Assembly (NCBI GenBank): GCA_963727625.1
Contig: CAVSHR010000011.1
Span: forward strand, 192,001 to 256,000
Direction: 5' to 3'
From: an uncultured delta proteobacterium
GTDB taxonomy: Bacteria > Desulfobacterota > Binatia > UBA9968
DNA length: 64,000 nucleotides
Of the stretch, positions 8,248-39,971 are shown one piece after another (within the stretch, counting starts at the first letter, position 1; each line of letters starts with the position of its first letter). The position numbers and the translations under genes are program-made. The notes below the pieces were generated by a model. It worked only from the letters and a program-made list of their open reading frames with translations, made no database searches and had not been told where the DNA came from.

Positions 8248-8271
8248 CGCCGGCAGCCACCTCCGTAATGG

Positions 8272-8377
8272 CGGTCGTCGGTCTTCGGTCACCTGTCGCT
8301 GATGGCTGACCGCTGATGGCTGACAGCTGACCGCTGACCGCTGACAGCTGACCGCTGATAGCTGACCGTTGAAAGCT
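8272..8377. repeat. Heptamer array: CGGTCNN x3 followed by GCTGANN x11
   Basis: Read directly: gctgatg gctgacc gctgatg gctgaca gctgacc gctgacc gctgaca gctgacc gctgata gctgacc gttgaaa from 8298. Confidence 0.9.
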
Positions 8378-9464: not shown

Positions 9465-9474
9465 ATCCAGAAGC

Positions 9475-9586
9475 TCACCACAGAGGCACGGAGTTCGCAG
9501 AGGCGAGAGCAAAGCGCATGGCGCGGCCGGTCGTCCGTCGTCCCATAGTCGACCAATCCTCTGCGCGCTCAGCGTCTCCGCTGTGA
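9475..9586. repeat. Imperfect hairpin element (CACAGAG/CTCTGCG family)
   Basis: Arms 9475-9503 (tcaccacagaggcacggagttcgcagagg) and 9558-9586 (cctctgcgcgctcagcgtctccgctgtga) are inverted. Confidence 0.8.
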
Positions 9587-9630
9587 TTCCCGTATTCGTG
9601 TAGTCGTATGCTCCTGTAGTCTGTCGTCCC

Positions 9631-10221
9631 ATGCCATTTCGCTTTACGCGAGCATCGATTCCAGAAGTTATTCTCGTCGACCCGGCTGTGTTTTCAGACC
9701 AGCGCGGCTTTTTCATGGAGACGTACAAGCGCTCGGAATTTGCCGCGCAGGGGATATCGGAAACTTTTGTCCAAACTAATCACTCGAAATCTTCAAGAGG
9801 AACGTTGCGTGGATTGCACTATCAAAAACCGCCCAAGGCGCAGGGCAAACTGATTCGCGCGCTGGTCGGAGAGGTCTATGACGTGGCGGTCGACATTCGC
9901 AAAGGATCGCCCACCTTCGGCAAATGGGTATCGGCTGCACTTTCAGCGAAAAGTAAAAAAATGCTTTACCTGCCGGCGGGCTTCGCCCACGGCTTTTGCG
10001 TCACCAGCGACGATGCTGAGATCGAGTACATGGCCACCGAAGAGTACGCGCCGGATTTGGAGTCCGGGGTGATCTGGAACGACCCGGATCTCGGTATCGA
10101 TTGGCCGATCGCCGACCCGACACTCTCGCCGCGCGACCGCGCCTGGCCCCGCCTGCATGCTGCGGACAATAGTTTCACATATTCAGATGGCAGAGGGCAT
10201 AGCGCAGAGGGCACAGGGTAG
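9631..10221 (+). CDS. rfbC: dTDP-4-dehydrorhamnose 3,5-epimerase
   Basis: DQRGFFME, LRGLHYQ, DVAVDIRKGSPTFGKW, GFAHGF, WNDPDLGIDWP. Confidence 0.95.
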   Translation: MPFRFTRASIPEVILVDPAVFSDQRGFFMETYKRSEFAAQGISETFVQTNHSKSSRGTLRGLHYQKPPKAQGKLIRALVGEVYDVAVDIRKGSPTFGKWVSAALSAKSKKMLYLPAGFAHGFCVTSDDAEIEYMATEEYAPDLESGVIWNDPDLGIDWPIADPTLSPRDRAWPRLHAADNSFTYSDGRGHSAEGTG

Positions 10222-10272
10222 CTGGCAGCTGGCAGAGGGCATAGGGCATTGGGCAAGGGGTAGAGGGCAGGA
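10189..10272. repeat. Left heptamer arm (GGCAGAG/GGCATAG, about 12 units) of four-helix-bundle element 1
   Basis: ggcagag ggcatag cgcagag ggcacag ggtagct ggcagct ggcagag ggcatag ggcattg ggcaagg ggtagag ggcagga. Confidence 0.85.
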
Positions 10273-10319
10273 GGCTCTAACACAAACTAAGAGAGCGTCG
10301 ACATTAGGAGAGTGAGAGA

Positions 10320-10685
10320 GTGACGGAGGATAGGCCCAAGTTTCGCTTCATGGATTTGGAAATCTGGCGAGACGCTATCGAGATTGGGTGTGCATTGTTT
10401 GATATCGCGGATAAGCTGGAATCAAGGAGACTTTACAAGTTTGCCGAACAATTGCGCGGATCGGGACTATCGATGTCCAATAATATCGCCGAGGGCTCCG
10501 GCAGTAATTCAAAACGAGAATTTTCTAGTTTTTTGAACATCGCGCGCCGCTCTACCTTTGAAAACGCAAATATCCTGATCGTTATGGAAAAACGTCAACT
10601 GCTCGACGAAAACCAGGTAACAATATTGCTGGAAAAACTGGATCGACTGTGCCGAAGGATTACAAACTTCCAGAGAACCCTCTGA
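10320..10685 (+). CDS. Four helix bundle protein (23S rRNA IVS protein / Avd-like family)
   Basis: FMDLEIW, QLRGSGLSMSNNIAEGSG, FLNIARRSTFE family motifs; 121 aa. Confidence 0.9.
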   Translation: MTEDRPKFRFMDLEIWRDAIEIGCALFDIADKLESRRLYKFAEQLRGSGLSMSNNIAEGSGSNSKREFSSFLNIARRSTFENANILIVMEKRQLLDENQVTILLEKLDRLCRRITNFQRTL

Positions 10686-10697
10686 GATTGACTGGCG

Positions 10698-10850
10698 CCA
10701 TGCGCTTTCCTCCTTGTTTTTTTCTTATTTTTAGTAACTCCATGCCCGCTGCTCCGTGCCCTTTGTTTGCTACTCATGGCGCTATGCCCCATGCGCTCTG
10801 CCCATTGCGTGTTATCCTTGGTGCCATGCTCTTTGCCCTATGCCCTTAGC
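10698..10850. repeat. Right heptamer arm (CTATGCC/CTCTGCC), reverse complement of 10189-10272
   Basis: ctatgcc ccatgcg ctctgcc cattgcg ... ccatgct ctttgcc ctatgcc. Confidence 0.8.
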
Positions 10851-10857
10851 TAAGTTT

Positions 10858-11910
10858 ATGCGTACAGTCATTGTCACCGGCGGCTGCGGTTTTATCGGCA
10901 GCAACTTTGTCAGGTTGCTGTGCGCCGAGACCGATTGGCGGGTGGTCAATCTCGATAAGCTCACCTACGCGGGGAATCCGGAAAATCTTTCCGGGATAGA
11001 CGAGGAGCGCTACCGATTCATCAAAGGCGATATCGGTCAGCGGTCTTTGGTCGACCGTCTCTTAGAGGAGGAAAAGCCCTGGGCTGTCGTCAATTTTGCC
11101 GCCGAGTCGCACGTCGACCGAAGTATTCTCGACGCTGCTCCATTCCTGCAAACCAACATCGCGGGCGTGCAAAGCTTGCTGGAAACGGTGCGCTGCCATC
11201 CTGTGGAACGCTTTCTACAGATCTCCACCGACGAGGTTTACGGTGATCGTCAAGGGAAGGACCGCGCCACCGAAGAGTCGGCGCTTTTGCCGAGCAGTCC
11301 CTACGCCGCGACCAAGGGCGCGGCCGATCTGCTATGTCTTTCGTACCGGCGTACTTACGATTTGCCGATCATCGTGACGCGCAGCTCGAACAATTACGGC
11401 CCCTATCAATTCCCGGAAAAGCTGATTCCGCTGCTCATCCGAAACGGACTCAATGACTTGGAATTACCGATCTATGGCGACGGCAAGCAGATTCGCGATT
11501 GGCTGTGCGTCGAGGACAATTGCCGGGCGATTCTTTCGGTCCTTAACAAAGGGCAGATCGGCCGTATTTACAATATCGGCATCGGGGAAGAACGCACGAA
11601 TCTTGATGTCGCAGAAGCGATTTGTGCCGCCATTGCCGACCGTAAAAAGCTGAACTCAACGAAACTTACGGAACGAATTCGCTACGTCGCCGATCGGCCG
11701 GGACACGATCGCCGCTATGCGATCGACACTACGAAAGTTCGAAGCGAGCTCGGCTGGAAACCGCAATTGGATTTTGCCGCGGGAATCAAGCAGACCGTCG
11801 ATTGGTACCTTGATCATCTCGACTGGATGTCGCGGGTGACCTCGGGCGAGTATCGGAAGTACTATGAGTCAGTCTATGCGCAAGCGTGGGGCATGGGGCG
11901 TGGGGCATAG
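10858..11910 (+). CDS. rfbB: dTDP-glucose 4,6-dehydratase
   Basis: TGGCGFIGSNF, DKLTYAGN, AAESHVDRSI, STDEVYG, YxxxK, DRPGHDRRY; the real start is the ATG at 10858 (the upstream extension is translated repeat). Confidence 0.95.
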   Translation: MRTVIVTGGCGFIGSNFVRLLCAETDWRVVNLDKLTYAGNPENLSGIDEERYRFIKGDIGQRSLVDRLLEEEKPWAVVNFAAESHVDRSILDAAPFLQTNIAGVQSLLETVRCHPVERFLQISTDEVYGDRQGKDRATEESALLPSSPYAATKGAADLLCLSYRRTYDLPIIVTRSSNNYGPYQFPEKLIPLLIRNGLNDLELPIYGDGKQIRDWLCVEDNCRAILSVLNKGQIGRIYNIGIGEERTNLDVAEAICAAIADRKKLNSTKLTERIRYVADRPGHDRRYAIDTTKVRSELGWKPQLDFAAGIKQTVDWYLDHLDWMSRVTSGEYRKYYESVYAQAWGMGRGA

Positions 11911-12310
11911 GGCATGGGGCAGAGAGCAAAGCGCATGGCGCAGAGGGTAAAGCGCAGAGGGGATGGGGCGTGGGGCATAGGGCATGGGGCAGAGAGCAAA
12001 GCGCATGGCGCAGAGGGTAAAGCGCAGAGGGCGTGGGGCGTGGGGCATGGCGCAGAGGGTAAAGCGCATAGGGCATAGGGCATGGGGCAAAGCGCAAAGG
12101 GCGGCCGGCGGCGGTCCTCGGTCGTCAGTCCTCGGTCGTCAGTCCTCGGTCGTCAGTCCTCGGTCGTCGGTCTCTCGGTCGTCAGTCCTCGGTCGTCAGT
12201 CTTCAGTCTATGATCATCGGTCCTCAGTCACCCCTAGCGTGGAGCTGGTAGGGGGGAAAAGGCCCTCGCAGTATCAGTTTCGCACTATGCCCAATGCACT
12301 CTGCCCTTTG
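11884..12310. repeat. Gene-less heptamer element: GGCATRG/CGCAGAG array with a 70-bp higher-order unit, a CGGTCGT/CAGTCCT array and a short reverse arm
   Basis: 11891-11960 is almost identical to 11961-12030; cggtcgt cagtcct units at about 12112-12229; ctatgcc caatgca ctctgcc at about 12285-12305. Confidence 0.9.
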
Positions 12311-12324
12311 TTAGTTTCATTCCT

Positions 12325-13233
12325 ATGAAACGACAAAAAGTAGCCGTGATCGGCAGCACTGGACAACTCGGCACTGATCTGGTCGAGGTGTTGCGGCAGG
12401 ACGACAAATTCGAAGTGTTCCCAGCCGGCCACGCCGACTGTGACTGTACGAATGCGAATCAGGCGTTGGATGTCATCCGCAACTTGCACCCCGATGTGGT
12501 GATCAACTGCGCCGCCACCGTTCGCGTCGACGACTGTGAGGATCACGCGCGCGAAGCATTTGAAGTCAATGCGGTCGGAGCATTGAACATTGCGCGCGGG
12601 TGTGAGGCGGTGGATGCTCTTTGCGTTTATATCAGCACCGATTATGTTTTCGATGGCAACAAGGGCTCGCCGTACGTTGAGTCGGACCCGCCTTGCCCCA
12701 TCAACGTCTATGGTGCGTCAAAGTTAGCCGGCGAGTATCTGGTTCGGCAGTCTGCGCCGCGCTGGTTGATCGTCAGAATGTCGAGCTTATTCGGCAAAAC
12801 CGGCGCTCGCGGCAAGGGCGGTAATTTTGTCGAGACGACTTTATCAAAGGCCAAAGCGAACGAGGCCTTGAGAATCGTAAACGATGTGCGTATGTCTCCG
12901 ACCTTCGCCCGCGACGCCGCCGAAGCTGTGCGGGCGCTTATCCGAAGTGGAATCACCGGGCTATGTCACTTGGCCAACAGCGGCGCTTGCACATGGCATG
13001 AGTTTGCCAAAGCGATATTGATGCAAGCCGGTATAAGCAAAGAAGTCGTTCCGATCTCTTCCGCAGAGCTTCACGCGAAGGCTCGCCGGCCCAAAGATTC
13101 ATCACTGCGAAGTGATAGGATTCACGGGATGCTCCAATATAAGCTGCCCCCTTGGCAAGATGCGCTGCGAGCGTATCTAGTGGAGAAGGAACATATTCAA
13201 GCGATCGGCCCAGCTTTACGCGACACGCGTTGA
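12325..13233 (+). CDS. rfbD: dTDP-4-dehydrorhamnose reductase
   Basis: GSTGQLG, ISTDYVFDG, YGASKLAGE, SPT, ARRP motifs. Confidence 0.94.
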   Translation: MKRQKVAVIGSTGQLGTDLVEVLRQDDKFEVFPAGHADCDCTNANQALDVIRNLHPDVVINCAATVRVDDCEDHAREAFEVNAVGALNIARGCEAVDALCVYISTDYVFDGNKGSPYVESDPPCPINVYGASKLAGEYLVRQSAPRWLIVRMSSLFGKTGARGKGGNFVETTLSKAKANEALRIVNDVRMSPTFARDAAEAVRALIRSGITGLCHLANSGACTWHEFAKAILMQAGISKEVVPISSAELHAKARRPKDSSLRSDRIHGMLQYKLPPWQDALRAYLVEKEHIQAIGPALRDTR

Positions 13234-13262
13234 AGGCCAGGCAAAGAAAACAAGAGGATCCA

Positions 13263-14270
13263 ATGGATCAACCCAAAGTCACTATCGCTGTCGTTCCGCG
13301 GGAGCGCTTCAACATGACCGCATACTCTCTCGAAAGCATTTATCGGGAGACCCATTATCCGTTCAAGATGATCTACGTCGACGGCGGTTCGCCCAACCAT
13401 GTCCGGAACTATCTTCAAATCCAAGCGCAAAAAAAAGGCTTCGAGCTTATCCGGACAGATCATTACCTCAGTCCCAACCAAGCGAGAAATCTAGCTTTAA
13501 AAAATCTCGACACAAGGTATGTATTGTTTATCGACAACGATGTTGTGGTGACCCCTGGTTGGTTGGCAGCGCTGGTTCAATGTGCGGAGGAAACCGGGGC
13601 TTGGGTGGTCGGGCCAGTATACTGCATTGGGCAACCTGAGTTTCAAACCATTCATATGGCCGGGGGAATGGCTCATATCGTCGACGATCACGGACAAAGA
13701 GATCTGAACGAGCAACACCGATTTATCGGAAAACCCTGGGACGGGGTTCGAGACCAACTGCATCGGGAACCGACGGAACTCGTAGAGTTCCATTCGATCC
13801 TGATACAAACCGAGGTCTTCGGGACGATCGGATCTCTGGACGAAAATCTTCTCAGCAGCCCGGAGCATATTGATCTTTGTCTTTTGGTCAAACAAGCGGG
13901 TGGCACGATATGTTTTGAGCCCCGGTCTCTGGTTAACTATCTAAGCCCGCCTCCGCTGGCGCGCTCTGACTTGTCGTTTTTCATGCTTCGTTGGAGCGAC
14001 GAATGGAATCGCAAGAGCTTGGAACATTTTCGGAAAAAATGGGAATTGGCCGACAACAGTACGTTTCTTACCCGGCACTACGACTGGCTGACTGGCCATC
14101 GCCAACAGATCACGCTTGCCCCGATGCAAACAGGACTTCGTAACCTCGTTGGATGGCGTCTGGGAAGTTGGCTGGGAAGTCAATTACTGGCCAGGGCAGA
14201 GAAGTCATTCAACAATTGGTGGGTTAGCCATAGCTCCAAGACGCGGGTAGCCGGCCAAACAGCTAAGTGA
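13263..14270 (+). CDS. Glycosyltransferase family 2
   Basis: VDGGS, ARNLAL, FIDND (DxD), EHIDLC motifs. Confidence 0.85.
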   Translation: MDQPKVTIAVVPRERFNMTAYSLESIYRETHYPFKMIYVDGGSPNHVRNYLQIQAQKKGFELIRTDHYLSPNQARNLALKNLDTRYVLFIDNDVVVTPGWLAALVQCAEETGAWVVGPVYCIGQPEFQTIHMAGGMAHIVDDHGQRDLNEQHRFIGKPWDGVRDQLHREPTELVEFHSILIQTEVFGTIGSLDENLLSSPEHIDLCLLVKQAGGTICFEPRSLVNYLSPPPLARSDLSFFMLRWSDEWNRKSLEHFRKKWELADNSTFLTRHYDWLTGHRQQITLAPMQTGLRNLVGWRLGSWLGSQLLARAEKSFNNWWVSHSSKTRVAGQTAK

Positions 14271-14290
14271 TTCCTCTTGGGTATCGAGCC

Positions 14291-15116
14291 ATGAAGACCT
14301 ACGCGCAGACCAATATTCAATTATTAAATCTGTTGCGACAACTAGGCTACTCCGGGAGAGAGGTCATGGTTGCTCACGACGGATATCGTCTGGCGATGCA
14401 ATTTTTCGGGACAATATCGACCATCCGGAAAGCCGTTTGTGTGCCATTTAATCGGGACTGCCGCCATTCTGGCGGATCAGAAGGCTCCAATTGAAATCGT
14501 TGCAGCGGGGCTTCTTCATGCGGCCTATACTTTCGGTGAATTTGGCAGTGGGCACAAAGGTATTTCGGACGCGAAGAGGACGCAGGTGCGAAAAGTTGTC
14601 GGCGATGAAGCAGAAGCTCTCATTGCTGAATACGCAGGAGTCCCGTGGAATAAACTCGCAGTTCTCGAATTATCGGAAAAAGATTTAATTGGAGTCACAA
14701 ATGTAATGCGTCAGGTCTTATTCATCCGTTTGGCGAACGAATTGGAAGAGCATCTAGACTTGGGCATCGCATATTGTAGTGACGCCGAACAGAGGAAAAA
14801 AGCGATTGATTCCCATCTCGGCAAACTCGTCGAAGTCGCGAAGGAATTGCATATAAAGAACTGTCATATCTATTGAACGAAGCGTTTCAACAATGCATTT
14901 CACATGAGCAAATCAATTTGCCAAACTACGGTCGCCGGAGTTCCTTTTGTTTGGCTCCAGTGTCTCGACCGCCTTCGGCTGGGACCCCGGATCAGTGCCT
15001 TTCTTGAAGGACCCGGTCGGTCTTTCCTGCGAAAAGGTCTCGGCTGGCGGCGTGGAAATGGGGTTGAGCAGAGGATCAAGCGAGCTTTAGAGTGGTGGAC
15101 TATCCGCCCATACTGA
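14291..15116 (+). pseudogene. HD-like domain protein (DUF6817-like), split by several frameshifts
   Basis: YAQTNIQL ... YRPSGKPFVCHLIGTA ... AGLLHAAY ... RLANELE across three or more frames. Confidence 0.6.
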
Positions 15117-15359
15117 AACGGAGTTTCGTTCATCCGGGACGAATTGTCACCGATGGATTGAGCCCCATCATCTGCGCACACAACAGAATACGGTTGGTCG
15201 GCCGAAGTGTCCAAATTCGCCACTTGCCGTCGTCGGAATTCATCGGCCGATAAAACGCCCGAGTCAATGCGAGCGTCCAGAGTAAGTTCGTATCCTCGCA
15301 AAAATGGTCTGTCCCTATTCTAACTTGCGCGCCGGCCGCTGCTAGTTATACTGCGCTCT

Positions 15360-16207
15360 ATGTTAGCCGAAGTACCTATGAACCCCTCGGAACCCACGGT
15401 GGTTATCGAGCCGCGCAGGGGGCTGTTTGATCTAGATCTGAAGGCCGTCTGGCAGTACCGCGAGCTGCTTTATTTTCTGGTCTGGCGCGATCTCAAGATC
15501 CGCTACAAGCAGACTGCGATCGGAGTCGCCTGGGCGGTTTTGCAGCCGGTTGTTCAGATGGTCATCTTTACGGTGATATTCGGCCGGTTCGCAAAAATTC
15601 CCTCCGACGATCTTCCTTACGCGGTCTTTGCTTATAGCGCGCTTCTCCCCTGGAACTATTTCGCCACGGCCTTGAACCGCTGTGCCGTCAGCGTGGTCGG
15701 CGATGCCAATTTGATTTCGAAGATCTATTTCCCGCGCCTCCTTCTGCCCATTGCCGGCACGACTTCGGGGTTTATCGATTTCTTCGTTTCTTTCATTGTT
15801 TTGCTAGGAATGATGGCCTGGTACCAAATCGCGTTTACCGGGTGGTTGCTGACGGTGCCGCTGTTCTTGATATTGGCTCAGCTTACGGCTCTGGCCGTGG
15901 GCCTTTGGTTATCCGCGTTGAATGTCCGTTACCGCGATGTCGGCCATACCGTCCCGTTTATCGTTCAGATTTGGATGTTTGCCTCACCGGTTGTCTATCC
16001 AGTGAGTTTGATTCCGGAGAAGTGGCGCATGCTCTTTAGCCTCAACCCCATGGTCGGCGTCATCGAGGGATTCCGCTGGGCTTTGCTCGGCAAGGCGAGT
16101 CCCGACTTCACCGCCATGGCCGCAGTTTGCTCGTCGTATCGGTCTTGCTGGTTGGTGGTCTCGTATTTTTTAAAAATATGGAGCGGACCTTTGCGGATGT
16201 GGTGTAG
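15360..16207 (+). CDS. wzm: Polysaccharide ABC transporter permease (Wzm), frameshift near 16120
   Basis: RDLKIRYKQT, IYFPR, YRDV, NPMVGVIEGFR; the canonical MERTFADVV* ending lies in a shifted frame with stop at 16205-16207. Confidence 0.9.
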
Positions 16208-16212
16208 TAGAG

Positions 16213-16900
16213 GACGGTAGACCGACGACAGATGACCGACGACGGACAAATGAATCTGGAGGGTTGACCGTCACATTGCCAATTAGCTGTCGAACGAGGT
16301 TCTGGGGTCACCGTGTCAACGGTCGACAGTCGGGTCAAATCATCATTTCTGGTCTGAGTTTCGTCGTTGGTCAATTGTCAGATGTATAAATTCGAAAAGC
16401 TTGAAGTTTACCAACTTGCTTTGCAGTACACGGACATGATTTACGCGGTGGCGGAAAAACTCCCCAAAAAAGAGGAGCATAACCTTAAATCACAGGTCAT
16501 TCGGGCTGGAACGTCAATCGTGCTCAATATCGCCGAAGGATCGACTAGCCAAAGCGACATGGAACAAAGAAGGTTCCTGGCGATGTCCCTTCGGTCTCTT
16601 CTAGAAACGGTTGCATGCCAGCAGTTAATTGCTCGTCGAGGCTACGTCGGCAGAGAAGAGTTGGCTAAAACATACGATTTTAGCCAAGTGCTTTTCGGGA
16701 AGTTACAAGCAATGCGCCGTTCACTTCAAAAGAACAAGGGCGAAAAATAAACACGAGCTCTCTTCGTCAATCTTCAGACTGTTGTCAACGGTCTTTTTGG
16801 TCGGTCAACGGTCGCTTTCATCCGTCTTGCGTTTTGTGCGCGGGCGGTCCACGATTTTCAGTTTTCCGTCTATCGTCCTCAGTCTACCGTCAACCGTCGT
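16213..16900. mobile_element. Four-helix-bundle element 2 with inverted GACNGAC/GTCNGTC heptamer arms
   Basis: gacggta gaccgac gacagat gaccgac gacggac (16213-16247); ccgtcta tcgtcct cagtcta ccgtcaa ccgtcgt (16866-16900); 16213-16222 is the exact reverse complement of 16882-16891; mobility is inferred. Confidence 0.55.
16382..16750 (+). CDS. Four helix bundle protein
   Basis: YKFEKLEVY, SQVIRAGTSIVLNIAEGS, FLAMSLRSLLET. Confidence 0.9.
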   Translation: MYKFEKLEVYQLALQYTDMIYAVAEKLPKKEEHNLKSQVIRAGTSIVLNIAEGSTSQSDMEQRRFLAMSLRSLLETVACQQLIARRGYVGREELAKTYDFSQVLFGKLQAMRRSLQKNKGEK

Positions 16901-16912
16901 TTGACTAATGCT

Positions 16913-18289
16913 ATGAGTGATCTCGCCATCCGCGTCGAAAACCTAGGCAAGCTCTACAAGATCGGTGCGCGTCAGAACCGTCACGACACGCTCCGCGATC
17001 ATCTTGTTTACGGCATCAAATCACTCTTCTCACGCAATGGTGATCGGCCGGCGGTCGTTGGTCATCCATCCACAAGCAGCGGTCCGTTGTCCGCGGTCAG
17101 CGGTCAACCGTCAGGATCTTCCAGTCAACCCTCAACCCTCGACTCTCAATCCTCGATCCACCCTCAACCACCCGACACCATCTGGGCCCTCAAGGACGTC
17201 TCTTTCGAGATCAGGCACGGTGACGCGGTTGGTTTCGTCGGGCGCAACGGGGCGGGTAAAAGCACTCTGCTCAAGATTCTCTCCCGCATCACCGAGCCGA
17301 CAACCGGTCGCGCAGAGATCTACGGTCGTGTTGGCTCGCTTCTCGAAGTCGGAACCGGCTTCCATCCCGAGCTTACCGGGCGGGAAAATATCTTTCTTAA
17401 CGGCGCGATTCTTGGCATGCGCAAAGCCGAGATCGAACGAAAGTTCGATGAAATCGTCGCATTTTCCGAGGTCGAGACGTTCATCGATACCCCAGTCAAA
17501 CGATATTCCAGCGGCATGCGAGTCCGTCTGGCGTTTTCGGTGGCGGCACACTTGGAACCGGAGATTTTGATCGTCGACGAGGTCTTGGCAGTCGGCGACG
17601 CGGAATTTCAGAAAAAATGTTTGGGTAAAATGGACGATGTGACCAAACAGGGCCGGACCGTTCTTTTCGTGAGTCACAATTTGGTTGCTTTACGGCGATT
17701 GTGCGACCGAGGCCTGCTTTTGGATCGTGGCCAAGCGGTTTGCTTTGACTCGGTGGATGGCTGCGTAAACCGGTACGAGCAAATGATGGTTAACGGAGAT
17801 GCCAGGACATCAGCTGCGCACGTCCTCTACGAAGCAAACGGAATGAGCAGCGGGCAATTCGGCATAGCAAAGATTGAGATTCTTGATTGCGCAGGTGCTC
17901 CCAAGGTCGGAATTTACACCTGGGACTCCTTCACGATTCGGGTTCACTATATTGCGCCAAGACATGTAAGCCGGGGTTCCGTTGTCATACAGATTAATTC
18001 GCCCGATGGAGCGCCTTTGTTGGTTTTATCTACGCAGCCAGATTCCGCAGTGCCAATGGCCCTCGAGGTCGGCACTCACGCGGTCGATTGTATGGTAAAG
18101 AATATTCCTTTGGCAGCGGGTGATTATGTTATCGGCGCTGGACTGGCCATTCCTAACCAGGAGTGGTTACGCAAAACCGAAAACCTGGGTCGGATCAAGA
18201 TTTTACCACGCGATGTGTTCGACTCGGGCCGGCCTCCAGTTTCGACGCGAGCCTTGATGGCAGTTCCTCATGGCTGGCGGATAAGATGA
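16913..18289 (+). CDS. wzt: Polysaccharide ABC transporter ATP-binding protein (Wzt) with C-terminal carbohydrate-binding domain
   Basis: GRNGAGKST, YSSGM, DEVLAVGD, VSH motifs; C-terminal Wzt_C-like region. Confidence 0.93.
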   Translation: MSDLAIRVENLGKLYKIGARQNRHDTLRDHLVYGIKSLFSRNGDRPAVVGHPSTSSGPLSAVSGQPSGSSSQPSTLDSQSSIHPQPPDTIWALKDVSFEIRHGDAVGFVGRNGAGKSTLLKILSRITEPTTGRAEIYGRVGSLLEVGTGFHPELTGRENIFLNGAILGMRKAEIERKFDEIVAFSEVETFIDTPVKRYSSGMRVRLAFSVAAHLEPEILIVDEVLAVGDAEFQKKCLGKMDDVTKQGRTVLFVSHNLVALRRLCDRGLLLDRGQAVCFDSVDGCVNRYEQMMVNGDARTSAAHVLYEANGMSSGQFGIAKIEILDCAGAPKVGIYTWDSFTIRVHYIAPRHVSRGSVVIQINSPDGAPLLVLSTQPDSAVPMALEVGTHAVDCMVKNIPLAAGDYVIGAGLAIPNQEWLRKTENLGRIKILPRDVFDSGRPPVSTRALMAVPHGWRIR

Positions 18290-18522
18290 CAGAGCCCGTT
18301 CGCCTCGCCAACCCATCGATGGTGCAGATGTCAAACGAGAACCGCGCTTCTACAATTAGATTGTCGGATAAATGAAGTGCGTTTGTCGGCTGATGATTGG
18401 ATTATGGACGCGGTCTCGCGATACCGATAAGGACTGTGCTCAATATTAGCTTCTATCGTTTGGCTGGAAAACCGTCGTAGGGGTCCGCCGGGTCATGATA
18501 CTTTTAATTGCATTCGCCAGTC

Positions 18523-19434
18523 ATGATCAGCGTCGTTCTTTGCACGTACATCGCAACGAAGATCTGGCGAAATGTTTGGCTGAACTGGACTCCAGCACAT
18601 TCCAGCCGGAATGGCTTGGGAGTTGATGGTGGTGGACAACAATTCCTCGGATCGAACCGAAAAGATCGTAAGAGAATTTGCGTCCAGAGGCCGCTTGCCG
18701 ATCAAATACCTTTTTGAATCAAAGCAAGGGAAATCCCATGCGCTGAACCAGGGCATCTCGAAATCAACCGGCGACACAATAGCGTTTATCGATGACGATT
18801 GCCTAGCCCATAAAGATTGGCTTTGGTCTTTGACGAAAATATTCCATTCCGATCCGCAGGTGATCGGAGTGGGAGGCAGGATACTCCCCGTGTGGAACAC
18901 GGAAAAACCGTCTTGGCTCGATATGAATGAGATGCCGGGTCCTATCGTGTGTTTTGATATGGGTGATGAATTTACGCAATCGAATGTCGTTCCGTTTGGC
19001 GCAAATATGGCGTTCCGCAAAACAGCTTTCCTGAATGGCCTATTCCGGTCGATATGGGCCCCAATGCGAAGAGTAAGGCTCGTACGAGTGGCCGTGGGGA
19101 GGATACGGAATTCGAAGACGAGTTCGGAGAGGCGGAGAAAAGATTGCCTATATTCCTGACGCAATTGTTTACCACCCGGTGGAGCCGAGCAGATTGACCA
19201 AAAACTATTTCCAAAAGTGGTATTTTTCCTATGGCAGGGCCCTGCTCCTGGAAAACGGTCTGCGACGGTGCGGTATTTTACTTTGGCGTTCCACGTTATC
19301 TATATCGCAGCATCGCAACGTGTATGATCAAGTGGCTTTGGTGCTTCAATGAACGGAAGCGATTCTCTCGTAAGCTGGCCTTGTGTCATCTCGCGGGTGT
19401 GTGTTTCGCCGCGATTCAGAACGCAAGAAAATAA
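18523..19434 (+). pseudogene. Glycosyltransferase family 2, multiple frameshifts; paralog of 48550-49509
   Basis: MISVVLCTY, VVDNNS, FIDDD, GANMAFRK, GVPRYLYR pieces in different frames. Confidence 0.75.
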
Positions 19435-19604
19435 GGATATGAACGACACGAATGTTTTCCAGAGATTGAGCATCGGGGGCCTGCAATTTTGCTTGACGAA
19501 AGGGTTTGGAGATCAATAAGTTTCAAGGTGCAGAATGGCTGCTTCTTCACGGCGGTTCCTGCTTTGCTTGTCAAAACCGACACTTAAAAAGTGATGATAG
19601 CCCA

Positions 19605-20815
19605 TTGACGGAAGAGCTTCTAAACGCAAAGACACCGTTGCATCCCGAAATCGGCTTGCTAGCACTTGTCCCTGACGAGTGGAGCGATCAGTGGCAAGCT
19701 CGGCATCATATCCTCAGCAGGTTAAGTCATTACTACCATGTTGTCTGGCTGAATCCTCCCCATCACTGGCGGGAATCGGTTCCAAAGCTGCGCGCGCGAA
19801 AAAACGCTTATAGATCTGATAATTCAAACGGTTTGCTATTCTACACTCCAGAGTGGTGGCTGCCGCATCTACATAGGCCACGGCGAATTTCAAATAGTTT
19901 GTTTCGTGCACTGCTCGGCGAGCTTTAAGCGCTTCCAATCGCCAAGCGATGTAAGAAGACATTCTTTTTCCATGGTCTCCTGTTTGGCCGGATCATAAAA
20001 TATATCCCTTATGATCTAAGTTGTTATCACGTCGATGACGATTACTCATTTTCTGACGTGGATTTACCGAGCAACCGGGATGAAATGCAACTCCTTAGAA
20101 ACGTTGATCAAGTATTTATTCATTCTCCTGGACTAATGGAAAAAAAGGGTGGGGTTAATTCGAATACTTGTTTTTTCCCGAATGGTGTCGATTATAAGGC
20201 ATACGCGTCGATAGCACGGGAGCCCGAAGATTTGGCGGCGGTTCCTCACCCCCGGATTGGTTATGCTGGCCATTTGAAAAAAATGCTCGATTGGCAACTG
20301 CTAAACAATTGATACTTGGCAAGCCGGAGTGGAATTTCGTCTTTGTTGGGGAAATCAATTCAAGTCATTCTCAAATTCTCGATCCTATGGGCCAGTTGTC
20401 GAAACGCATTAGCGTGAATTTATTAGGAGGGAAGATGTCACAGGATCTCGCGGGCTAACCACAGCATTTTGATGTGTGCGTGATGCCTTATAAAATGTAT
20501 CCCTATACAAATTACATTTATCCCATGAAACTCCATGAATACCTCGCGAGTGGACGCCCCGTCGTAGGAACTCCGATTCGATCGTTGGCGGAATTTAGTC
20601 GCGTCATTCAGCTGGCTGGGACTGCTCACGAATGGTCAAGCGCTATCGAGAGAGCTCTTAGTCTGGAAGAAAACTCAAAAGAGAAGATAGAGGTTCGGCA
20701 GCAGATCGCCCGGCAGTTTGATTGGAACAATCTCGTGACAATTATTACCCGCACTGTTTGTGAACGTCTTGGCGAGAGTGATCGTGCCAGGCCGGCGCAT
20801 GGCGGTCCTAGATAA
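19605..20815 (+). pseudogene. GT-B (TuaH-like) glycosyltransferase, multiple frameshifts and a stop
   Basis: QARHHILSRL, PNGVDY, PRIGYAG, YPMKLHEYLASGRPVV fragments; start approximate. Confidence 0.7.
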
Positions 20816-20955
20816 ACATCGTGCAACCGCTATTCCGATTTGCGAGGTATTCGATAGTTGTGAACGGCAAGGTTTATAGACAGTATTGGCCTTTCGATAG
20901 AAGCGCCTGACGATGCTTCCACGCAACAGCGGCCGGGGATAGCTCATTTTGATCT

Positions 20956-22020
20956 ATGAGATCAACACACGGAAATGCCGTGAATCGAAGAACCGAAGAG
21001 AATCCGAAAATTGCGGATCGCAGCGTGATTGAGCGCTGCACGATCATTGTTGCCCCGCGAGACCTGTTTTCGACCACAGAAGAATGTCTCGAACAACTAT
21101 TTAAAAATACTCCCGAACGGTTTGATTTGGTGGTTGTCACGGGCGGAGCACCGGATTCGATAAGACAAATGCTTGAAGCCCGCTATGCGGAAAAGGCGCG
21201 GTTGATCTTTGAGCCAAACTTTTTAACCGGTTCTCAATTGCGAAATATCGGTTTGCGGGAAGCCAAGACACGATTAGCCGTTTGTTTGGACACCAACGTC
21301 TTCGTGCGGGCCGGCTGGTTGGCGCCGTTGATTCGGTGCCAAATTGAAACCGGAGCGAGCGAAGTGGTTCCACTGTGCGTTGATCAGAATATTAGAGTGC
21401 ACAATGCCGGCAACGATCTTTTCATAACCTACAAAAATGGTGAAGCGATCGGCAAGATGGAGCTAAGATGTTCGGGTCAGCCGGTTTGGGACAGGACTAA
21501 TTTAGCGCGCAGTGAGATCGATTTTGGCGAGGTGCACTGCCAGCTGTTCGTCGTCGAGACCGCTTTGAAACTCGGTGTATTTGACGAACGATTGCGCGAA
21601 GGGATCGAACTTGACTCGGGAATGACGCTCACCCGAGCGGGATGTAAAATAGTGTTCGAACCCGAATCGGTGGTATCCCTTTATTATCCCGTGATGCTCA
21701 AAAACATTGTCGACGTTGCACTTTATCGATGGAAATGGGACATACCCGAGGTTATAGCAGGTTACGACTATCTTAGTGAAAAATGGAATATGAGCTTCGG
21801 TGCAGGCGGTGGGTTTAAGGGTTATCTTGTCACGGTCAATGCCAGAGTAGGGGTGTTGACGCAAATCTGGCCTTCCAGCATTTCTCTGTTCTGCGACCGA
21901 GCCATAGCTTATGCCGTGGATACCTTCTGTCAGCCTTTTAGATCGCTCGCGTGGACTTTCCTGGCGTGGCGCACGGGATATTACAAACCATCGCAGATTC
22001 CCTCACGTCCTATCGGATAA
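20956..22020 (+). CDS. Glycosyltransferase family 2-like protein; paralog of 13263-14270
   Basis: Similar N-terminus (APRDLFS..LE), RNIGL, GWLAPL, EVHC, FEPES motifs. Confidence 0.7.
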   Translation: MRSTHGNAVNRRTEENPKIADRSVIERCTIIVAPRDLFSTTEECLEQLFKNTPERFDLVVVTGGAPDSIRQMLEARYAEKARLIFEPNFLTGSQLRNIGLREAKTRLAVCLDTNVFVRAGWLAPLIRCQIETGASEVVPLCVDQNIRVHNAGNDLFITYKNGEAIGKMELRCSGQPVWDRTNLARSEIDFGEVHCQLFVVETALKLGVFDERLREGIELDSGMTLTRAGCKIVFEPESVVSLYYPVMLKNIVDVALYRWKWDIPEVIAGYDYLSEKWNMSFGAGGGFKGYLVTVNARVGVLTQIWPSSISLFCDRAIAYAVDTFCQPFRSLAWTFLAWRTGYYKPSQIPSRPIG

Positions 22021-22025
22021 AAAAA

Positions 22026-22519
22026 TTACTGCTGAGGTTGTGAGTACGCCAGGAACGAATGTAATCAAGAAAAACTCCGAACTCTGCGACCTCTGTGCCT
22101 CTGTGGTGCAAAAACTTCCGGAGATCTTACCGCGGAGGCGCGGAGTACGCCGAGAGTAGAATGTTATCGAGAAATACTTTGAACTCTGCGACCTCTGTGC
22201 CTCTGTGGTGCAAAAACTTCCGGAGATCTTACCGCGGAGGCGCTGAGTACGCCGAGAGTAGAATATTATCGAGAAAAACTTCGAACTCTGCGACCTCTGT
22301 GCCTCTGTGGTGCAAAAACTTCCGGAGATCTTACCGCGGAGGCGCTGAGTACACCGAGAGTAGAATATTATCGAGAAATACTTCGAGCTCTGCGACCTCT
22401 GTGCCTCTGTGGTGAAAAAACCTCCGGAGATCTTACCGCGGAGGGGTGAGTACGTTGAGGAAAGAGCTGTGTGTCGGAAAATACTTCGAACTCTGTGACC
22501 TCTGTGTTCTCCGCGGTGA
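22026..22519 (+). repeat. Tandem array of five 102-bp hairpin units
   Basis: GA(A/G)CTCTG(C/T)GACC at 22079, 22181, 22283, 22385, 22488; each unit has inverted arms ACCGCGGAGGCGC(G/T)GAGTACGCCGAG / CTCTGCGACCTCTGTGCCTCTGTGGT. Confidence 0.92.
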
Positions 22520-22566
22520 AGATTGATTCGTCTTTCTGTTCGCGTTAACTATACCCAATGACACTG

Positions 22567-23318
22567 ATGGCGAGCGCCAGTATTATCATTCCCTGTTACA
22601 ATGAAGAACAAAGGCTCGATGTCGCCAGTTTTCAGAGACTTCAGGAGTTCAACGCACCGCATTACATTTCTATTCGTTAACGATGGCAGCAAGGATGGAA
22701 CCCTGGGATTGTTGGAATCATTGCAGGCATCCGATCCCGGACAAATTCTCGGTACTAAACTTCGAACAAAACCAGGGCAAGGCGGAAGCGGTCAGAAGAG
22801 GCATGTTAGGCGCGCTCGATTCGCATGCCGACTACGTTGGATTCTGGGACGCGGATCTGGCGACTCCGCTGGACACGATCCCGCAATTCTTGGATCTCGC
22901 GGAAAGCCGGCCGGAGCTTGAAATCATCATGGGATCCCGAGTCAAGCTTCTGGGGAGAAAAATCGAGCGCCGCACCGCTCGCCATTATATCGGCCGTGCC
23001 TTTGCCACGGCCACATCGATGATCTTGGGTCTTGCGGTTTACGACACGCAGTGCGGCGCAAAACTTTTCAGAGCGTCTTCTTCGCTCAAAGCACTTTTTG
23101 CTCAGCCGTTCGTCTCACGCTGGATCTTCGACGTGGAGATTATCGCGCGGCTCATTCAGGCCAGGCGCGGCAAACAGCTTCCGCAACCCGAGCAAGTGAT
23201 TTATGAGTTTCCGTTGACAGAATGGAGAGACGTCCCCGGTTCCAAGCTGGGTTATGGTGATTTCACGAGAGCAGCGTGGGAATTGTTACAGATCCGCAAC
23301 AGGTATTTGCGGCGCTGA
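22567..23318 (+). CDS. GT2 polyprenyl-phosphate glycosyltransferase (ALG5-like), frameshifted near the 5' end
   Basis: IIIPCYNEE, FVNDGSKDGT, GKAEAVRRG, DADLATP, DTQCGAKLF, WIFDVE. Confidence 0.8.
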
Positions 23319-24125
23319 CGGGCCGACCGACGACGGCTGACCGAAATGATGACCGGTGACCTACGACTGACGACCGCCGCTGAGGAAAATTCATATGGGT
23401 GAGTTCAAGTTTGAAAAGCTTGAAGTCTGGCACTTGAGCTTGGAGTACATTGATAATTGCTATGTCACGTCCGATGGGCTACCGAAGCGGGAAGAGTTTA
23501 ATCTCCAGTCGCAGCTCATTCGGGCCGCAACATCCATCGCACTGAACATCGCTGAAGGTTCAACAAGCCAGAGTGATGCTGAACAACGTCGTTTTCTGGG
23601 ATTAGCCTTGCGTTCTCTGGTGGAGACAGTCGCGTGTCGTCGGCTGGCCCAACGCAGACATTATACGGATCATCTTAAAGGAGATCTCCTATCGGATGGA
23701 GAACAACTCGCGGGTAAACTGTTCGCCAAAGTCCAAGCCATGCGTCGAGTCCTGGGCAAAGGTAAACAGCCCTCGGTCCGCGGCGGAACGTTACCGGTCG
23801 CCCGGCAATCCTAGTCGCTGCATTCTGCATAGGCAGGGTCCGCCTTCAATGGTCAACCGTCCGCTGTCTACATTCGTCGGTCAATCCCCCATGAACGTCG
23901 GTCCGTGGTCGAACATCGTAAATCGACTCGTTTAGACATCAATCGCCCATCAAAAACGACGATAGGTCCTTTAGATGTCGGTGTTTAGTCAGCAGTCGAC
24001 GGTCCGTAAATCACACGGTCCTAGGACGAAAGTTGTCTGCAAATCTTTAGCGGTAGCGGTTACGGTCGTCTGTCGCCGATCAAGCTCATAGACACGTCGG
24101 TCCACCGTCATCCGACCGCGGTCAA
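23316..24125. mobile_element. Four-helix-bundle element 3 with inverted GACCGAC-type heptamer arms
   Basis: Left arm about 23316-23380 (gaccgac gacggct gaccga.. gaccggt gacctac gactgac gaccgcc); scattered GTCGGTC/CGGTC units at about 23850-24125; mobility is inferred. Confidence 0.5.
23395..23814 (+). CDS. Four helix bundle protein
   Basis: FKFEKLEVW, SQLIRAATSIALNIAEGS, FLGLALRSLVET. Confidence 0.9.
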   Translation: MGEFKFEKLEVWHLSLEYIDNCYVTSDGLPKREEFNLQSQLIRAATSIALNIAEGSTSQSDAEQRRFLGLALRSLVETVACRRLAQRRHYTDHLKGDLLSDGEQLAGKLFAKVQAMRRVLGKGKQPSVRGGTLPVARQS

Positions 24126-33000: not shown

Positions 33001-34563
33001 ATGATGCCGCAAGCTTTGCATCAATACCTACAATCTAGTGTTCGTCTCTTCCCCGATCACCCTGCGATTGAGGAACCGGCAAAAGGCGTCGTCACTTATC
33101 GCGAGCTGGACGTGTTGTCCAACCGGCTGCGCGATCGCCTTCGTTCGATGGGAGTAGGGCGAGGCGATCGAGTCGGCATTTATTTACACAAGTCAATCGA
33201 TGCGATCGTGGCGATTGTTGGTATTCTTAAAGCCGGAGCGACGTATGTGCCGGTGGACCCTATGGCGCCTGCAAGTCGTAACGCCTACATCCTGAGCGAC
33301 TGTGGCGTCAGAGTTGTCATCATCGAAAGTGCTTTCGCTTCCGCGCTCGTTAAGGAGATCGAAACTACAGGATCGGTGCCGCAAATGATCAGGTTGGAAG
33401 GGGTTGGTGGAGGGGTGGGAGTAACATCCGCGCTGTACAATGCGCCGGGTGGGAAAGCCGTATCATTTGAGGAGGATGAGACCGTTAGCTCAAACGATCT
33501 TGCTTACATCCTCTATACCTCAGGTTCGACCGGAAAACCCAAAGGTGTCATGCTCTCGCACCTCAATGCCACAAGCTTCGTAGATTGGTGCATTGAGACA
33601 TTTGAGCCCCGGCATGGGGATCGATTCTCCTCCCACGCTCCACTTCATTTCGACCTGTCGATATTCGATCTGTATGTCACATTTGGCAGCGGTGGGACGT
33701 TGGTGTTAGTTCCTGAAGATATCGGTAAGGAGCCTGTCAAGCTGGCTAGCTTGATCGCCGAGGCGCGAATTTCGATATGGTATTCCGCGCCATCGATCCT
33801 GAGTTTGCTGGTGCAATACGGTAACCTGGAAAGACACGATTACAGCGCCCTGCGCGTGATACTTTTTGCCGGCGAAGTATTTCCGGTCAAGCATTTGAGA
33901 ACGTTGACAGAACGGTTACCCAACCGGAGATATTTTAATCTCTACGGCCCAACCGAAACGAACGTGTGTACGTTCTATGAGGTGCCTTCGGTAATTCCTG
34001 ACGATCGCACCGAGCCATTTCCGATCGGCAAGGCCTGCAAGCATTTGCAAGCCAGGGTTTTGGACGAAGAGGGCCACGAGATCAAGCTAGGCGAAAGAGG
34101 TGAGCTTTGCATTGCCGGCCCCGCGGTTATGCACGGTTACTGGAACCTACCGGAACAAAGCACGCAGGCCTTTTGGGAGGCGGAGGGCGCTCGTTGGTAC
34201 CGGACCGGCGACATCGTCATTGAGCCGCCCGATGGAAATTATGTCTACGTCGGCCGGCGCGATCGGATGGTGAAACGACGTGGCTACCGGGTGGAGCTTG
34301 GAGAAATCGAGGCAGGACTTTACCGTCATCCGATAATCAAGGAAGCCGCTGTCGTCGCGCTGCCCGACCAGGAAGCGGGTGTGCGCATTCGCGCGTTTCT
34401 AAGCTGCCAGGAAGGCAAGCGTCCCTCAATTATCGAATTGAAGCGCTTTTGCATGGAGGTTTTGCCGCCCTACATGATTCCCGATGTGTTTTCATTTCAA
34501 GACGCACTGCCCAAAACCTCGACTGACAAGATCGATTATCAGCGGCTCAAGGAAATGAAGTGA
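33001..34563 (+). CDS. Standalone amino acid adenylation enzyme (L-proline--carrier ligase-like)
   Basis: YTSGSTGKPKG, HAPLHFDLSIFDLY, NLYGPTETNVC, YRTGD, RVELGEIE, LPKTSTDKID. Confidence 0.87.
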   Translation: MMPQALHQYLQSSVRLFPDHPAIEEPAKGVVTYRELDVLSNRLRDRLRSMGVGRGDRVGIYLHKSIDAIVAIVGILKAGATYVPVDPMAPASRNAYILSDCGVRVVIIESAFASALVKEIETTGSVPQMIRLEGVGGGVGVTSALYNAPGGKAVSFEEDETVSSNDLAYILYTSGSTGKPKGVMLSHLNATSFVDWCIETFEPRHGDRFSSHAPLHFDLSIFDLYVTFGSGGTLVLVPEDIGKEPVKLASLIAEARISIWYSAPSILSLLVQYGNLERHDYSALRVILFAGEVFPVKHLRTLTERLPNRRYFNLYGPTETNVCTFYEVPSVIPDDRTEPFPIGKACKHLQARVLDEEGHEIKLGERGELCIAGPAVMHGYWNLPEQSTQAFWEAEGARWYRTGDIVIEPPDGNYVYVGRRDRMVKRRGYRVELGEIEAGLYRHPIIKEAAVVALPDQEAGVRIRAFLSCQEGKRPSIIELKRFCMEVLPPYMIPDVFSFQDALPKTSTDKIDYQRLKEMK

Positions 34564-35711
34564 TGGATTTTTCGTATAGCGAAGAGCAGCAACTCCTGCG
34601 CGACACCATTGGCCGCTTTGCCGCCAAAGAGTTGAACGACACTGTCATCGAGCGTGACCGGGAGCACCAGTTCCCGCATCAGTTATGGTTGAAAGCCGGC
34701 GAAATGCGGTTGCAAGGTTTACCCGTCTCCGAGGATTACGGCGGTAGTGGATTGGATCCGTTAACCTCCGCGATCGCCTTGGAAGCCCTAGGCTATGGCT
34801 GTGAAGACAGCGGGCTGGTCTTCTCTATCTGCGCGCATCTTCTGTCTTGCGTCATACCGATCTGGAAATTCGGCAATGAGGAGCAAAAACAGCGCTACCT
34901 GCCGAAGCTGTGCAACGGTTCCCTAATTGGTGTTCATGCCATGACCGAGCCGGGTGCCGGTTCCGATGCTTTTGCCATGACGACCAAAGCTGTGCCATGC
35001 GACGGCGGTTACGTTATCAACGGTAATAAGACTTTCATCTCCAACGCGCCGGTTGCCGATGTAGTCATAGTCTTCGCCGTTACGAACGCAACCAAGGGCT
35101 ACTATGGCGGCATCTCAGCCTTTATCGTCGAAAAAGGCACGCCCGGATTCAAACATGGTCAAACCTTCGAAAAAATGGGTTTGCGCACGGCGCCGCTTGG
35201 CGAGCTGGTGTTCGACAATGTTATTGTTCCCGAAAATGCGATTCTGGGGGGCGTTGGCGCCGGATCATCGATGTTCACTCATGCGATGGACTGGGAGCGG
35301 GTCTGTCTGTTCGCATCACACGTCGGCACCATGGAACGTTTGATGGGCAAAGCGATCGCCTTTGCCAACACGCGCAAACAGTTCAACCAATCCATCGGCA
35401 AGTACCAAGCCGTCTCCCATCGCATCGCCGACATGAAAGTGCGCCTCGAAGCGGCGCGGTTGCTGATTTACAAAGCCGCGTCACTGCTCGACAAGACGAA
35501 AACCGTATCGTTGGATGCCGCTGTGGCAAAGCTGTTCGCCAGCGAGTCCCTGGTGAAAACTGCCATGGAAGTGGTGCAAATCCACGGTGGCAATGGTTAC
35601 ATGGTCGAATATGAAATGGAACGCGCTCTGCGCGATGCCATCGGCAGCACAATCTATTCCGGCACTTCAGAAATGCAGCGCAACATTATCTCCCGCTGGC
35701 TCGGTCTATAA
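34560..35711 (+). CDS. Acyl-CoA dehydrogenase family protein, L-prolyl-PCP dehydrogenase-like
   Basis: LGYGCEDSGLVFSICAH, MTEPGAGSD, KMGLR, MDWER, QIHGGNGY, IYSGTSEMQR. Confidence 0.85.
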   Translation: MMDFSYSEEQQLLRDTIGRFAAKELNDTVIERDREHQFPHQLWLKAGEMRLQGLPVSEDYGGSGLDPLTSAIALEALGYGCEDSGLVFSICAHLLSCVIPIWKFGNEEQKQRYLPKLCNGSLIGVHAMTEPGAGSDAFAMTTKAVPCDGGYVINGNKTFISNAPVADVVIVFAVTNATKGYYGGISAFIVEKGTPGFKHGQTFEKMGLRTAPLGELVFDNVIVPENAILGGVGAGSSMFTHAMDWERVCLFASHVGTMERLMGKAIAFANTRKQFNQSIGKYQAVSHRIADMKVRLEAARLLIYKAASLLDKTKTVSLDAAVAKLFASESLVKTAMEVVQIHGGNGYMVEYEMERALRDAIGSTIYSGTSEMQRNIISRWLGL

Positions 35712-39207: not shown

Positions 39208-39440
39208 GACGGCAAAGTGGAGCTAGGGTGCAGCGGCGAGTGGCGGGTTGCAAAGAGCCTGGGCGTAGAACTAAGGGTAGCGAGCGAAGGTCGGTCGTTG
39301 ACGACTATCTTCAATGTTATTGAGTTCTCGATGCCCGTCGCTCAGTCCTAAGTAACATTCATTGTCGGTGCTCCGGAAAACTAGTTGTCAGTAGTCCGTA
39401 GCTAGCGGTCTGTAATCGCTAATCATTCATAGGAGATATA

Positions 39441-39704: not shown

Positions 39705-39971
39705 TCACCACGGAGATCCCAGCGTGACAGAGCCACACCCAAAAAGTCGGCGAATTCACCGCAGAGACGCCGAGGACACAGAGTTTGGATAAGAAAATTG
39801 TTCAAAAAATGAAATCAACTCCGATCTCTGTGCTCTCCGCGCCTCTGCGGTGCTTTTTTTCTCGAATTTGCGCGCCCCGCGCAAATATCGAAGCATAGTA
39901 GTACAGAACTCACAGAGATCGTGCTCTTATCGAAAGACTTGTCTCGGTGGTCTCTGGGTCCTCTGTGGTAA
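39704..39971. repeat. Nested hairpin element (CACAGAG family)
   Basis: Outer arms caccacggagatc.. / ctcggtggtctctgggtcctctgtggt; inner arms about 39757-39783 / 39826-39852; perfect 9-bp inverted repeat at 39866-39886. Confidence 0.75.

Follow-up and report, generated by a model that had tools for sequence, protein, structure and literature searches.

Several described systems approach the arrangement reported here. Open reading frames (ORFs) in the 23S rRNA intervening sequences (IVS) of Coxiella burnetii and Leptospira encode proteins of the S23p/PF05635 family, lie inside a terminal stem and are patchily distributed (PMC4990558). The same four-helix fold occurs in Avd of diversity-generating retroelements (DGRs; PDB 4DWL), whose pentamer binds an RNA stem-loop, gripping it through flipped-out bases between protomers (10.1101/2023.10.23.563531). 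In REPIN/RAYT systems a small conserved gene under purifying selection lies within inverted repeats, its type tied to a repeat family that also forms gene-less intergenic doublets (PMC3337134). Here we analyze a 64,000-nt stretch (the window) of contig C11 from the genome of an uncultured delta proteobacterium (G000), in which three four-helix-bundle (FHB) genes, FHB1–3, each lie between two host genes and between inverted arms of tandem heptamers. Such a gene with its arms is called a cassette below.

Heptamer arrays have also been published as orphans: GGGAATC in Xanthomonas and GGGGAYT in Nostoc (PMC4692102), paired hepta- or octanucleotide sites in Geobacter (PMC2700814) and TAACTGA in Beggiatoaceae (PMC4679880). 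They were read as G-quadruplexes or regulator sites, and the sections available contain no link to a helix-bundle gene. A four-unit array is placed between bccP and XCC0516, a solved family member, in the Xanthomonas table, which lists no inverted partner there (PMC4692102). Heptamer over-representation in bacterial genomes (a 2007 survey cited in PMC4692102) is called unexplained in the same paper.

Three genes enclosed by heptamer arms

FHB1 (10320–10685, 121 aa), FHB2 (16382–16750, 122 aa) and FHB3 (23395–23814, 139 aa) occupy the rmlC|rmlB, wzm|wzt and GT2|amidotransferase junctions, the last formed with an XrtA-type asparagine-synthase-like amidotransferase gene (TIGR03108). All genes and arms are on the + strand of a long XrtA/PEP-CTERM-type exopolysaccharide cluster. 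An earlier reading made from the letters of the DNA (the sequence-only reading) had placed the FHB genes exactly between co-oriented host genes, and this was confirmed at all three junctions. Hidden Markov model scans gave 79–84 bits with TIGR02436 (curated cut-off 24) and 85–89 bits with PF05635 (curated cut-off 33.8). The three genes are evidently not recent duplicates of one another, with pairwise identities of 28/115, 35/117 and 70/122 residues; the last value (57%) is that of FHB2 and FHB3, which share a clade.

The 5' arm of site 1 (10189–10276) consists of GGC-cored heptamers of GGCAGAG/GGCATAG type and begins in the last rmlC codons (stop 10219–10221). Its 3' arm (10740–10852) carries reverse-complement units of CTATGCC/CTCTGCC type and ends 5 nt before the rmlB ATG (10858). 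At site 2, GAC-cored heptamers including GACAGAT (16213–16251) begin 5 nt past the natural wzm stop, and GTC-cored units follow the gene (16780–16898), the outer array (16854–16898) ending 14 nt before the wzt ATG (16913). GACAGAT, which belongs with the units of sites 2 and 3, also forms tandem heptamers in the 5' arm of the Coxiella IVS (PMC4990558), which bears out the suggested link to ORF-bearing rRNA IVS. The GAC-cored 5' arm of site 3 (23317–23378) starts at the GT2 stop codon (23316–23318). Degenerate GTC-cored arrays (23838–24125; inner 23838–23910, outer 24063–24125) precede the amidotransferase ATG (24137), and the C-terminal tail of FHB3 extends into arm sequence. Apparent frameshifts in wzm (about 16125–16220) and in several glycosyltransferase ORFs (18600–20950) are probably assembly indels; the natural wzm end agrees with relatives at 16207 (stop 16205–16207).

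Lag-7 autocorrelation was top or near-top among lags 3–14 in all six flanks (0.36–0.55). Inverted alignment of the paired arms scored 61.5 at site 1 (reached by 0/500 shuffles), 31.0 at site 2 (3/500) and 35.5 at site 3 (2/500); direct-orientation scores were 13.5–22. Arms of sites 2 and 3 cross-pair with one another (25.5–35), and those of site 1 pair with neither (15–21). The period-7 repeats upstream and inverted heptamers downstream recognized earlier are thus present at every site, strong at site 1 and decayed or degenerate at sites 2 and 3. The accompanying proposal, that the transcript folds with the gene in the loop of a long stem, held in part. The minimum free energy structure encloses the gene at each site, but with whole-cassette folding z-scores of -4.7, -2.1 and -0.6 for sites 1, 2 and 3, only site 1 forms a convincing stem on energy alone. 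RNA duplex energy compared with shuffles was significant at site 1 (0/200), borderline at site 3 (9/200) and not significant at site 2 (29/200).

The structure predicted for FHB2 (pLDDT 91) forms a four-helix bundle with TM scores of 0.89 to Xcc0516 (2GSC), 0.80 to BT_0352 and 0.78 to Avd, in agreement with the Avd-like fold attributed to the family. Conserved residues are polar (Q38, S45, N49, E52 and E75 in FHB2 numbering). The five chains in 2GSC and 2RLD, together with PMC4990558, suggest by analogy that FHB proteins are homopentamers. Median dN/dS was 0.063 over 82 non-independent pairs, and FHB1 is more conserved than rmlA, rmlB and rmlC between G000 and its relative G005; the protein is evidently under strong purifying selection.

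Arms and unit sequences across the family

The family was sampled as 164 TIGR02436/PF05635 matches in 31 genus genomes. The 121 loci examined yielded 131 domain hits, 108 of them full-length and 107 with flanks long enough for arm scoring. With an inverted alignment score of ≥35 as the arm-positive threshold, 92/107 loci had inverted arms. The same score was reached in direct orientation at 5/107 loci and by 4.8% of mismatched arm pairs. A control set of 1171 small ORFs of G000, greedily called and in part spurious, gave 14 positives, 6 of which were FHB genes. The remainder comprised 2 GxxExxY, 2 Y1-like, 1 DUF559-like and 3 other ORFs, where the DUF559-like label and one Y1 label are presumptive. 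Equal frequency of arms around unrelated genes, which the sequence-only reading had named as evidence against itself, was therefore not observed. The arm period was 7 at 64 loci, 8 at 12, 9 at 13 and 4–6 at 7, and 11 loci had none.

As to position, a 5' arm opens at the stop codon of the preceding gene, and a 3' arm closes shortly ahead of the following start. A sense stop lay between -40 and +60 nt of the outer 5' arm at 78/91 loci (random 23%; antisense control 15/91), and 56/91 had an ATG close to the outer 3' arm (random 27%; antisense control 45/91). With short operon spacers, some of this geometry would arise of necessity. Most cassettes share the direction of the upstream host gene.

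Unit sequence follows protein clade on the genus tree, a quick tree with long branches (FHB2 among them) for which no deep order is claimed, and at fixed junctions both arms switch unit together. For the GAC clade of sites 2 and 3, 80 loci were fetched from Chloroflexota, Acidobacteriota, Desulfobacterota-type and other metagenome-assembled genomes (MAGs); 5 with short flanks were dropped. At least three GAC-cored units at period 7, inner cores being allowed one mismatch, were present in both arms at 70/75 loci from several phyla. Other periods gave 0–1 loci and other cores 0–2. The unit reads GAC[GC][AG]NN, and the dominant pair at positions 5–6 was identical between the two arms of a locus in 55/70 cases, far better than between loci. 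The 80 loci fell into about 53 automatically clustered junction types. In another clade, one GTTC core occurs in units of 7, 8 and 9 nt (L041–L052, L093–L109); the period, too, can therefore vary.

Chance, slippage or assembly artefact is hardly credible at all as an explanation. It could call on the apparent frameshifts of the contig and on the modest significance of sites 2 and 3 taken alone, but it is refuted by the family-wide and GAC-clade counts. The same layout recurs in independent genomes and phyla, and G000 contains 133 period-7 tracts against 2–9 for periods 4, 5, 10, 11 and 13 (44 for period 8 and 32 for period 14).

The arms might alternatively constitute an mRNA intervening sequence and count only as an RNA stem, which RNase III would cut to free the gene as it does in 23S rRNA; the repeat would then be incidental, and recognition of the unit by the protein would not be required. 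RNase III is encoded in G000, and it cuts the Coxiella IVS at the start of the first heptamer (PMC4990558). Outer-aligned arms also mismatch less than unit-shuffled ones (544 vs 608±14, 0/2000; 484 vs 513±10, 5/2000), a register-specific effect modestly above the shuffles. At site 1 the sense-strand duplex far exceeds the antisense one in strength (-142 vs -117 kcal/mol), and G·U exceeds A·C in pooled genus arms (255:198, p 0.008). That excess is not significant by locus (41:30, p 0.24), is absent from the GAC clade (214:222) and could have a further source in transcription-linked mutation. Of 301 unit pairs from that clade, 145 mismatch at position 4 and 182 at position 7, close to what shuffling gives, and site 3 arms pair better on the antisense strand. 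Pairing does not need a GAC core fixed across phyla, and cutting without re-ligation would split the operon mRNA. We consider this explanation rather unlikely. What stands of the IVS-like spreading cassettes first proposed is the gene-plus-arm unit, the filled and empty sites and the family-specific arms; the arms themselves behave as protein-recognition arrays at least as much as pure RNA stems.

Filled, empty and gene-less junctions

Comparison of the rmlC–rmlB and wzm–wzt junctions among relatives, the check put forward with the sequence-only reading, revealed both filled and empty sites. At rmlC|rmlB, a cassette is present in G000 and in 1/13 relatives (G005; gene 82% identical, same unit family). 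The gene is missing from the other 12, of which 9 have spacers of 3–33 nt and 3 have spacers of 168–687 nt. At wzm|wzt, 3 nt separate the genes in G007, and in G014 the junction holds a gene from another clade (38%) that comes with another unit; an FHB gene was present at 0/27 of the remaining non-self wzt loci. The site 3 junction allows no filled/empty call: the best genus amidotransferase homologues are 43–46% identical, with GT2 or FHB at 0/11 non-self loci. The rmlA|rmlC junction is a 1-nt overlap in 13/13 relatives and holds a 166-nt gene-less hairpin in G000. Mapping by both flanks placed 45/98 cassettes of relatives on G000, at 16 junction entries; 6 are filled, at least 3 hold gene-less hairpins (two of another unit family) and the rest are without a gene. 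An FHB1-like gene with site-1-type arms was found at another junction in another family (L292). As filled, empty, gene-less and clade-swapped junctions all exist among relatives, cassette gain, decay and replacement evidently all occur. These comparisons show, at the level of sequence, that cassettes with a clade-specific unit come to occupy new junctions and give way to cassettes of other types. The closest relatives found for FHB2 lie outside the genus, in other phyla and several at wzm|wzt, including one 80% identical at this junction in a Syntrophobacteraceae MAG; site 2 may therefore have arrived with an operon block.

Heptamer arrays are not exclusive to FHB genes, and gene-less arrays occur on the + strand of the window as well. 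Orphan 3'-type arrays (8267–8375), GTC-cored and then of CTGACCG type, stand just before the rmlA ATG with no gene. The rmlA|rmlC insert (9465–9630) is a composite hairpin of 9-mer and heptamer arm pieces. At rmlB|rmlD, a gene-less nested hairpin (11885–12310) combines a long site-1-type 5' arm, an inner GTC-type array and a short site-1-type 3' arm. Every one of the four junctions flanking the window's rml genes thus carries arm sequence, and one alone has a gene. In-frame 3'-type heptamer arrays also lie within the wzt N-terminal linker (17050–17170), and translated heptamer arrays are seen at the same place of this linker in unrelated MAGs (L171, L172, L186).

Across G000, which has 11 family matches (2 broken), a search with units taken from the FHB arms of relatives found 33 array pairs in cassette orientation and 0 inside-out, at about 29 loci, 4 with a gene. 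A test of tract polarity against greedy gene calls was noisy because of spurious ORFs among those calls; it was not relied on, and the cassette-orientation test was used instead. Gene-less hairpins of the FHB-arm unit families, which the sequence-only reading did not mention, outnumber the genes and are dispersed in carrier genomes, much as REPIN doublets are in intergenic DNA. They share units, and neither loop sequence nor loop length. Gene and GATTTT-type array were each present in 29/30 genomes of family f1 and 5/5 of f2, and each in 0/11 of f3 (genomes 93–99% complete). One region elsewhere (G018:C13:1773100-1797700) contains at least seven family matches within 25 kb, several in pieces.

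The arrays could instead belong to a domesticated regulon, in which a ring-shaped RNA-binding regulator, as TRAP and Hfq are, recognizes host-selected sites that tune translation or decay, and the arms of its own gene autoregulate. The strong purifying selection would suit such a role, as would the far larger number of arrays than genes in G000. Arrays are close to stops and starts here and in PMC4692102, and earlier authors took such arrays as regulator sites (PMC2700814, PMC4679880). Host selection is harder to reconcile with sites that are patchy among congeners, with family swaps at the same junction, with an insert that breaks the stop/start overlap conserved in 13/13 relatives, and with eleven divergent paralogues in one genome that have different units, 2 of them broken. 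The host junctions are functionally unrelated, and we regard a regulon as unlikely.

The dispersed doublets also invite comparison with a DNA element of the REPIN or MITE type. The arms would then be terminal binding arrays (single- or double-stranded DNA) that an HUH transposase (Y1/RAYT), or one of another kind, moves in trans, and the FHB protein would serve as adaptor or passenger. RAYT genes with their REPINs have a like architecture of gene in inverted repeats, family-specific repeats and dispersed gene-less doublets (PMC3337134), mismatch types in the GAC clade are strand-symmetric, G000 has 35 Y1 matches, and GxxExxY genes lie in hairpin arms of their own. However, heptamer arms were found at 0/9 of the Y1 loci with flanks inspected (of 35 matches), and the gene-less hairpins, unlike copied MITEs, do not share loops. 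The prevailing co-orientation with the upstream gene is unnecessary for a DNA element. We hold this alternative to be distinctly improbable. No transposase or reverse transcriptase (RT) is adjacent to the FHB genes, as had been noted before; the 7 RT and 35 Y1 matches lie elsewhere in G000, and no HUH/Y1 tyrosine transposase is enclosed by the arms. A Y1 transposase near heptamer hairpins on contig C12 was set aside, as it proved to be an IS200-type copy that has ends of its own and sits within a gene.

A GxxExxY gene (TIGR04256; 41018–41401) in the same operon has hairpins of its own ~9-mer repeat family on both sides, and a second copy on C12 has similar arms; by its layout it is evidently a sister gene-in-arms system. 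Arm sequence of this type also occurs without a gene in about four near-identical 120-nt tandem units (22035–22525), and further single arms or hairpins lie near 32640 and in the 39207–39947 spacer. On another contig (G000:C5:711828-712295), a small nuclease-like ORF, presumably DUF559-like, sits inside a strong non-heptamer inverted repeat (score 55).

Other features lie further along the window. Inside the polysaccharide cluster, a protein with an adenylation domain is encoded at 33001–35711 along with a PigA/RedW-like prolyl-carrier dehydrogenase (below cut-off) and a small acyl-carrier-like ORF upstream, which suggests pyrrole-acyl decoration. An IS200-type Y1 transposase match lies in two pieces between glycosyltransferase genes (49636–49992), and an Rfam scan placed a c-di-GMP-I-GGC riboswitch aptamer above gathering score at 63208–63320 on the - strand.

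A proposed mechanism and the known systems

We propose, with about even confidence, that every site represents a single copy of a portable cassette, made up of gene and arms and living in host-transcript spacers. The FHB protein would form an Avd-like homopentamer recognizing its own unit, roughly one unit per protomer. The 4–5 units per arm (143/178 genus arms) and the periodic mismatches would fit, by analogy, the Avd grip via flipped-out bases between five protomers. On balance, the pentamer would probably read its unit on a single-stranded or hairpin form, most likely the transcript. Arm pairing is likely to loop the gene out and to hold the upstream stop near the downstream start, so that the insert would be tolerated in coupled operons. 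At somewhat less than even odds, the bound arm pair, with the gene or on its own, could also be what a host enzyme or one acting in trans copies to new junctions; such an enzyme is invoked because the FHB protein has no transposase motif. Whole operon blocks would also move the cassette between phyla. RNase III cutting of the stem, like that of the rRNA copies, is a plausible add-on that we put forward tentatively.

Several observations weigh against this proposal. No mobilizing enzyme is linked to FHB genes. The family alignment has no conserved His (13%) or Cys, its best Tyr column reaches 60%, and the domain-only pI exceeds 8 in just 27/107. The match of clade and unit can be explained by co-inheritance alone, and the co-occurrence of gene and array across f1, f2 and f3 is a single evolutionary contrast among kin. 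In the sister family f2, only 4/13 loci reach a score of 35, 4/13 score ≥35 in direct orientation, arrays at some loci are nested or run in the same direction, and several of the genes are broken. The relatives are too distant (60–80% aa) for insertion breakpoints or target duplications. Searches with FHB2 gave no match in phages and 2 weak matches in plasmids; a family gene on a Nostoc plasmid is boxed by inverted GGGAGT[AG] heptamer arms and lies antisense to its neighbors.

Taken to its furthest extent, the proposal would make these cassettes a widespread class of transposase-less, transcript-dwelling replicators: a pentameric Avd-like protein would read 4–5 of its own 7–9-nt units, and the hairpin with the protein bound would be copied into stop-to-start junctions with or without the gene. 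ORF-bearing rRNA IVS would then be one place where the class has landed, DGR Avd a member that was captured, and the excess heptamers of many bacteria non-autonomous offspring. We offer this as a doubtful conjecture. The cassette joins three open items, namely PF05635 as a solved family without a function, the origin of ORF-bearing rRNA IVS and heptamer over-representation. With clade and unit paired, a cognate ligand can be predicted for each protein, and the same operon naturally supplies the negative control (FHB1/GGC, FHB2/GAC). If the cassette does move through its arms, genomes could be colonized without a dedicated transposase, and the origin of DGR Avd may come into view.

These loci belong to none of the 23S IVS, REPIN/RAYT and DGR systems. 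Relative to DGRs, the Avd fold is shared, but identity is 9–13%, neither RT, template nor variable repeat lies beside the FHB genes, and none of the 7 RT matches of G000 is on contig C11. With published orphan arrays, the arms have in common a four-unit preference, inverted pairs, a G-rich arm after stops and its complement before starts. In our literature search, with subscription papers and curator notes outside it, no paper tied the family to heptamer arms beyond the Coxiella IVS; the cassette is real and general, and is not described as a system in the literature searched. Like the 23S IVS, it has terminal inverted repeats as a stem around an ORF of the same family, strong at site 1 and weak at sites 2 and 3. 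Unlike them, it lies in mRNA spacers rather than rRNA helix 45, at many junction types and with dispersed gene-less copies. An Rfam scan found no rRNA in the window, 0/201 FHB loci match 23S, and the single 23S match of G000 spans 3005 nt with no FHB hit inside. REPIN/RAYT systems differ in their HUH/Tyr transposase, for which the cassette has PF05635 hits only and no conserved His, and in ~20-nt palindromes where the cassette has tandem 7–9-mer arms, non-conserved loops and a strong stop/start geometry. The likeness to both is nonetheless close: the cassette is a generalized ORF-bearing IVS that behaves like REPIN/RAYT without the transposase.

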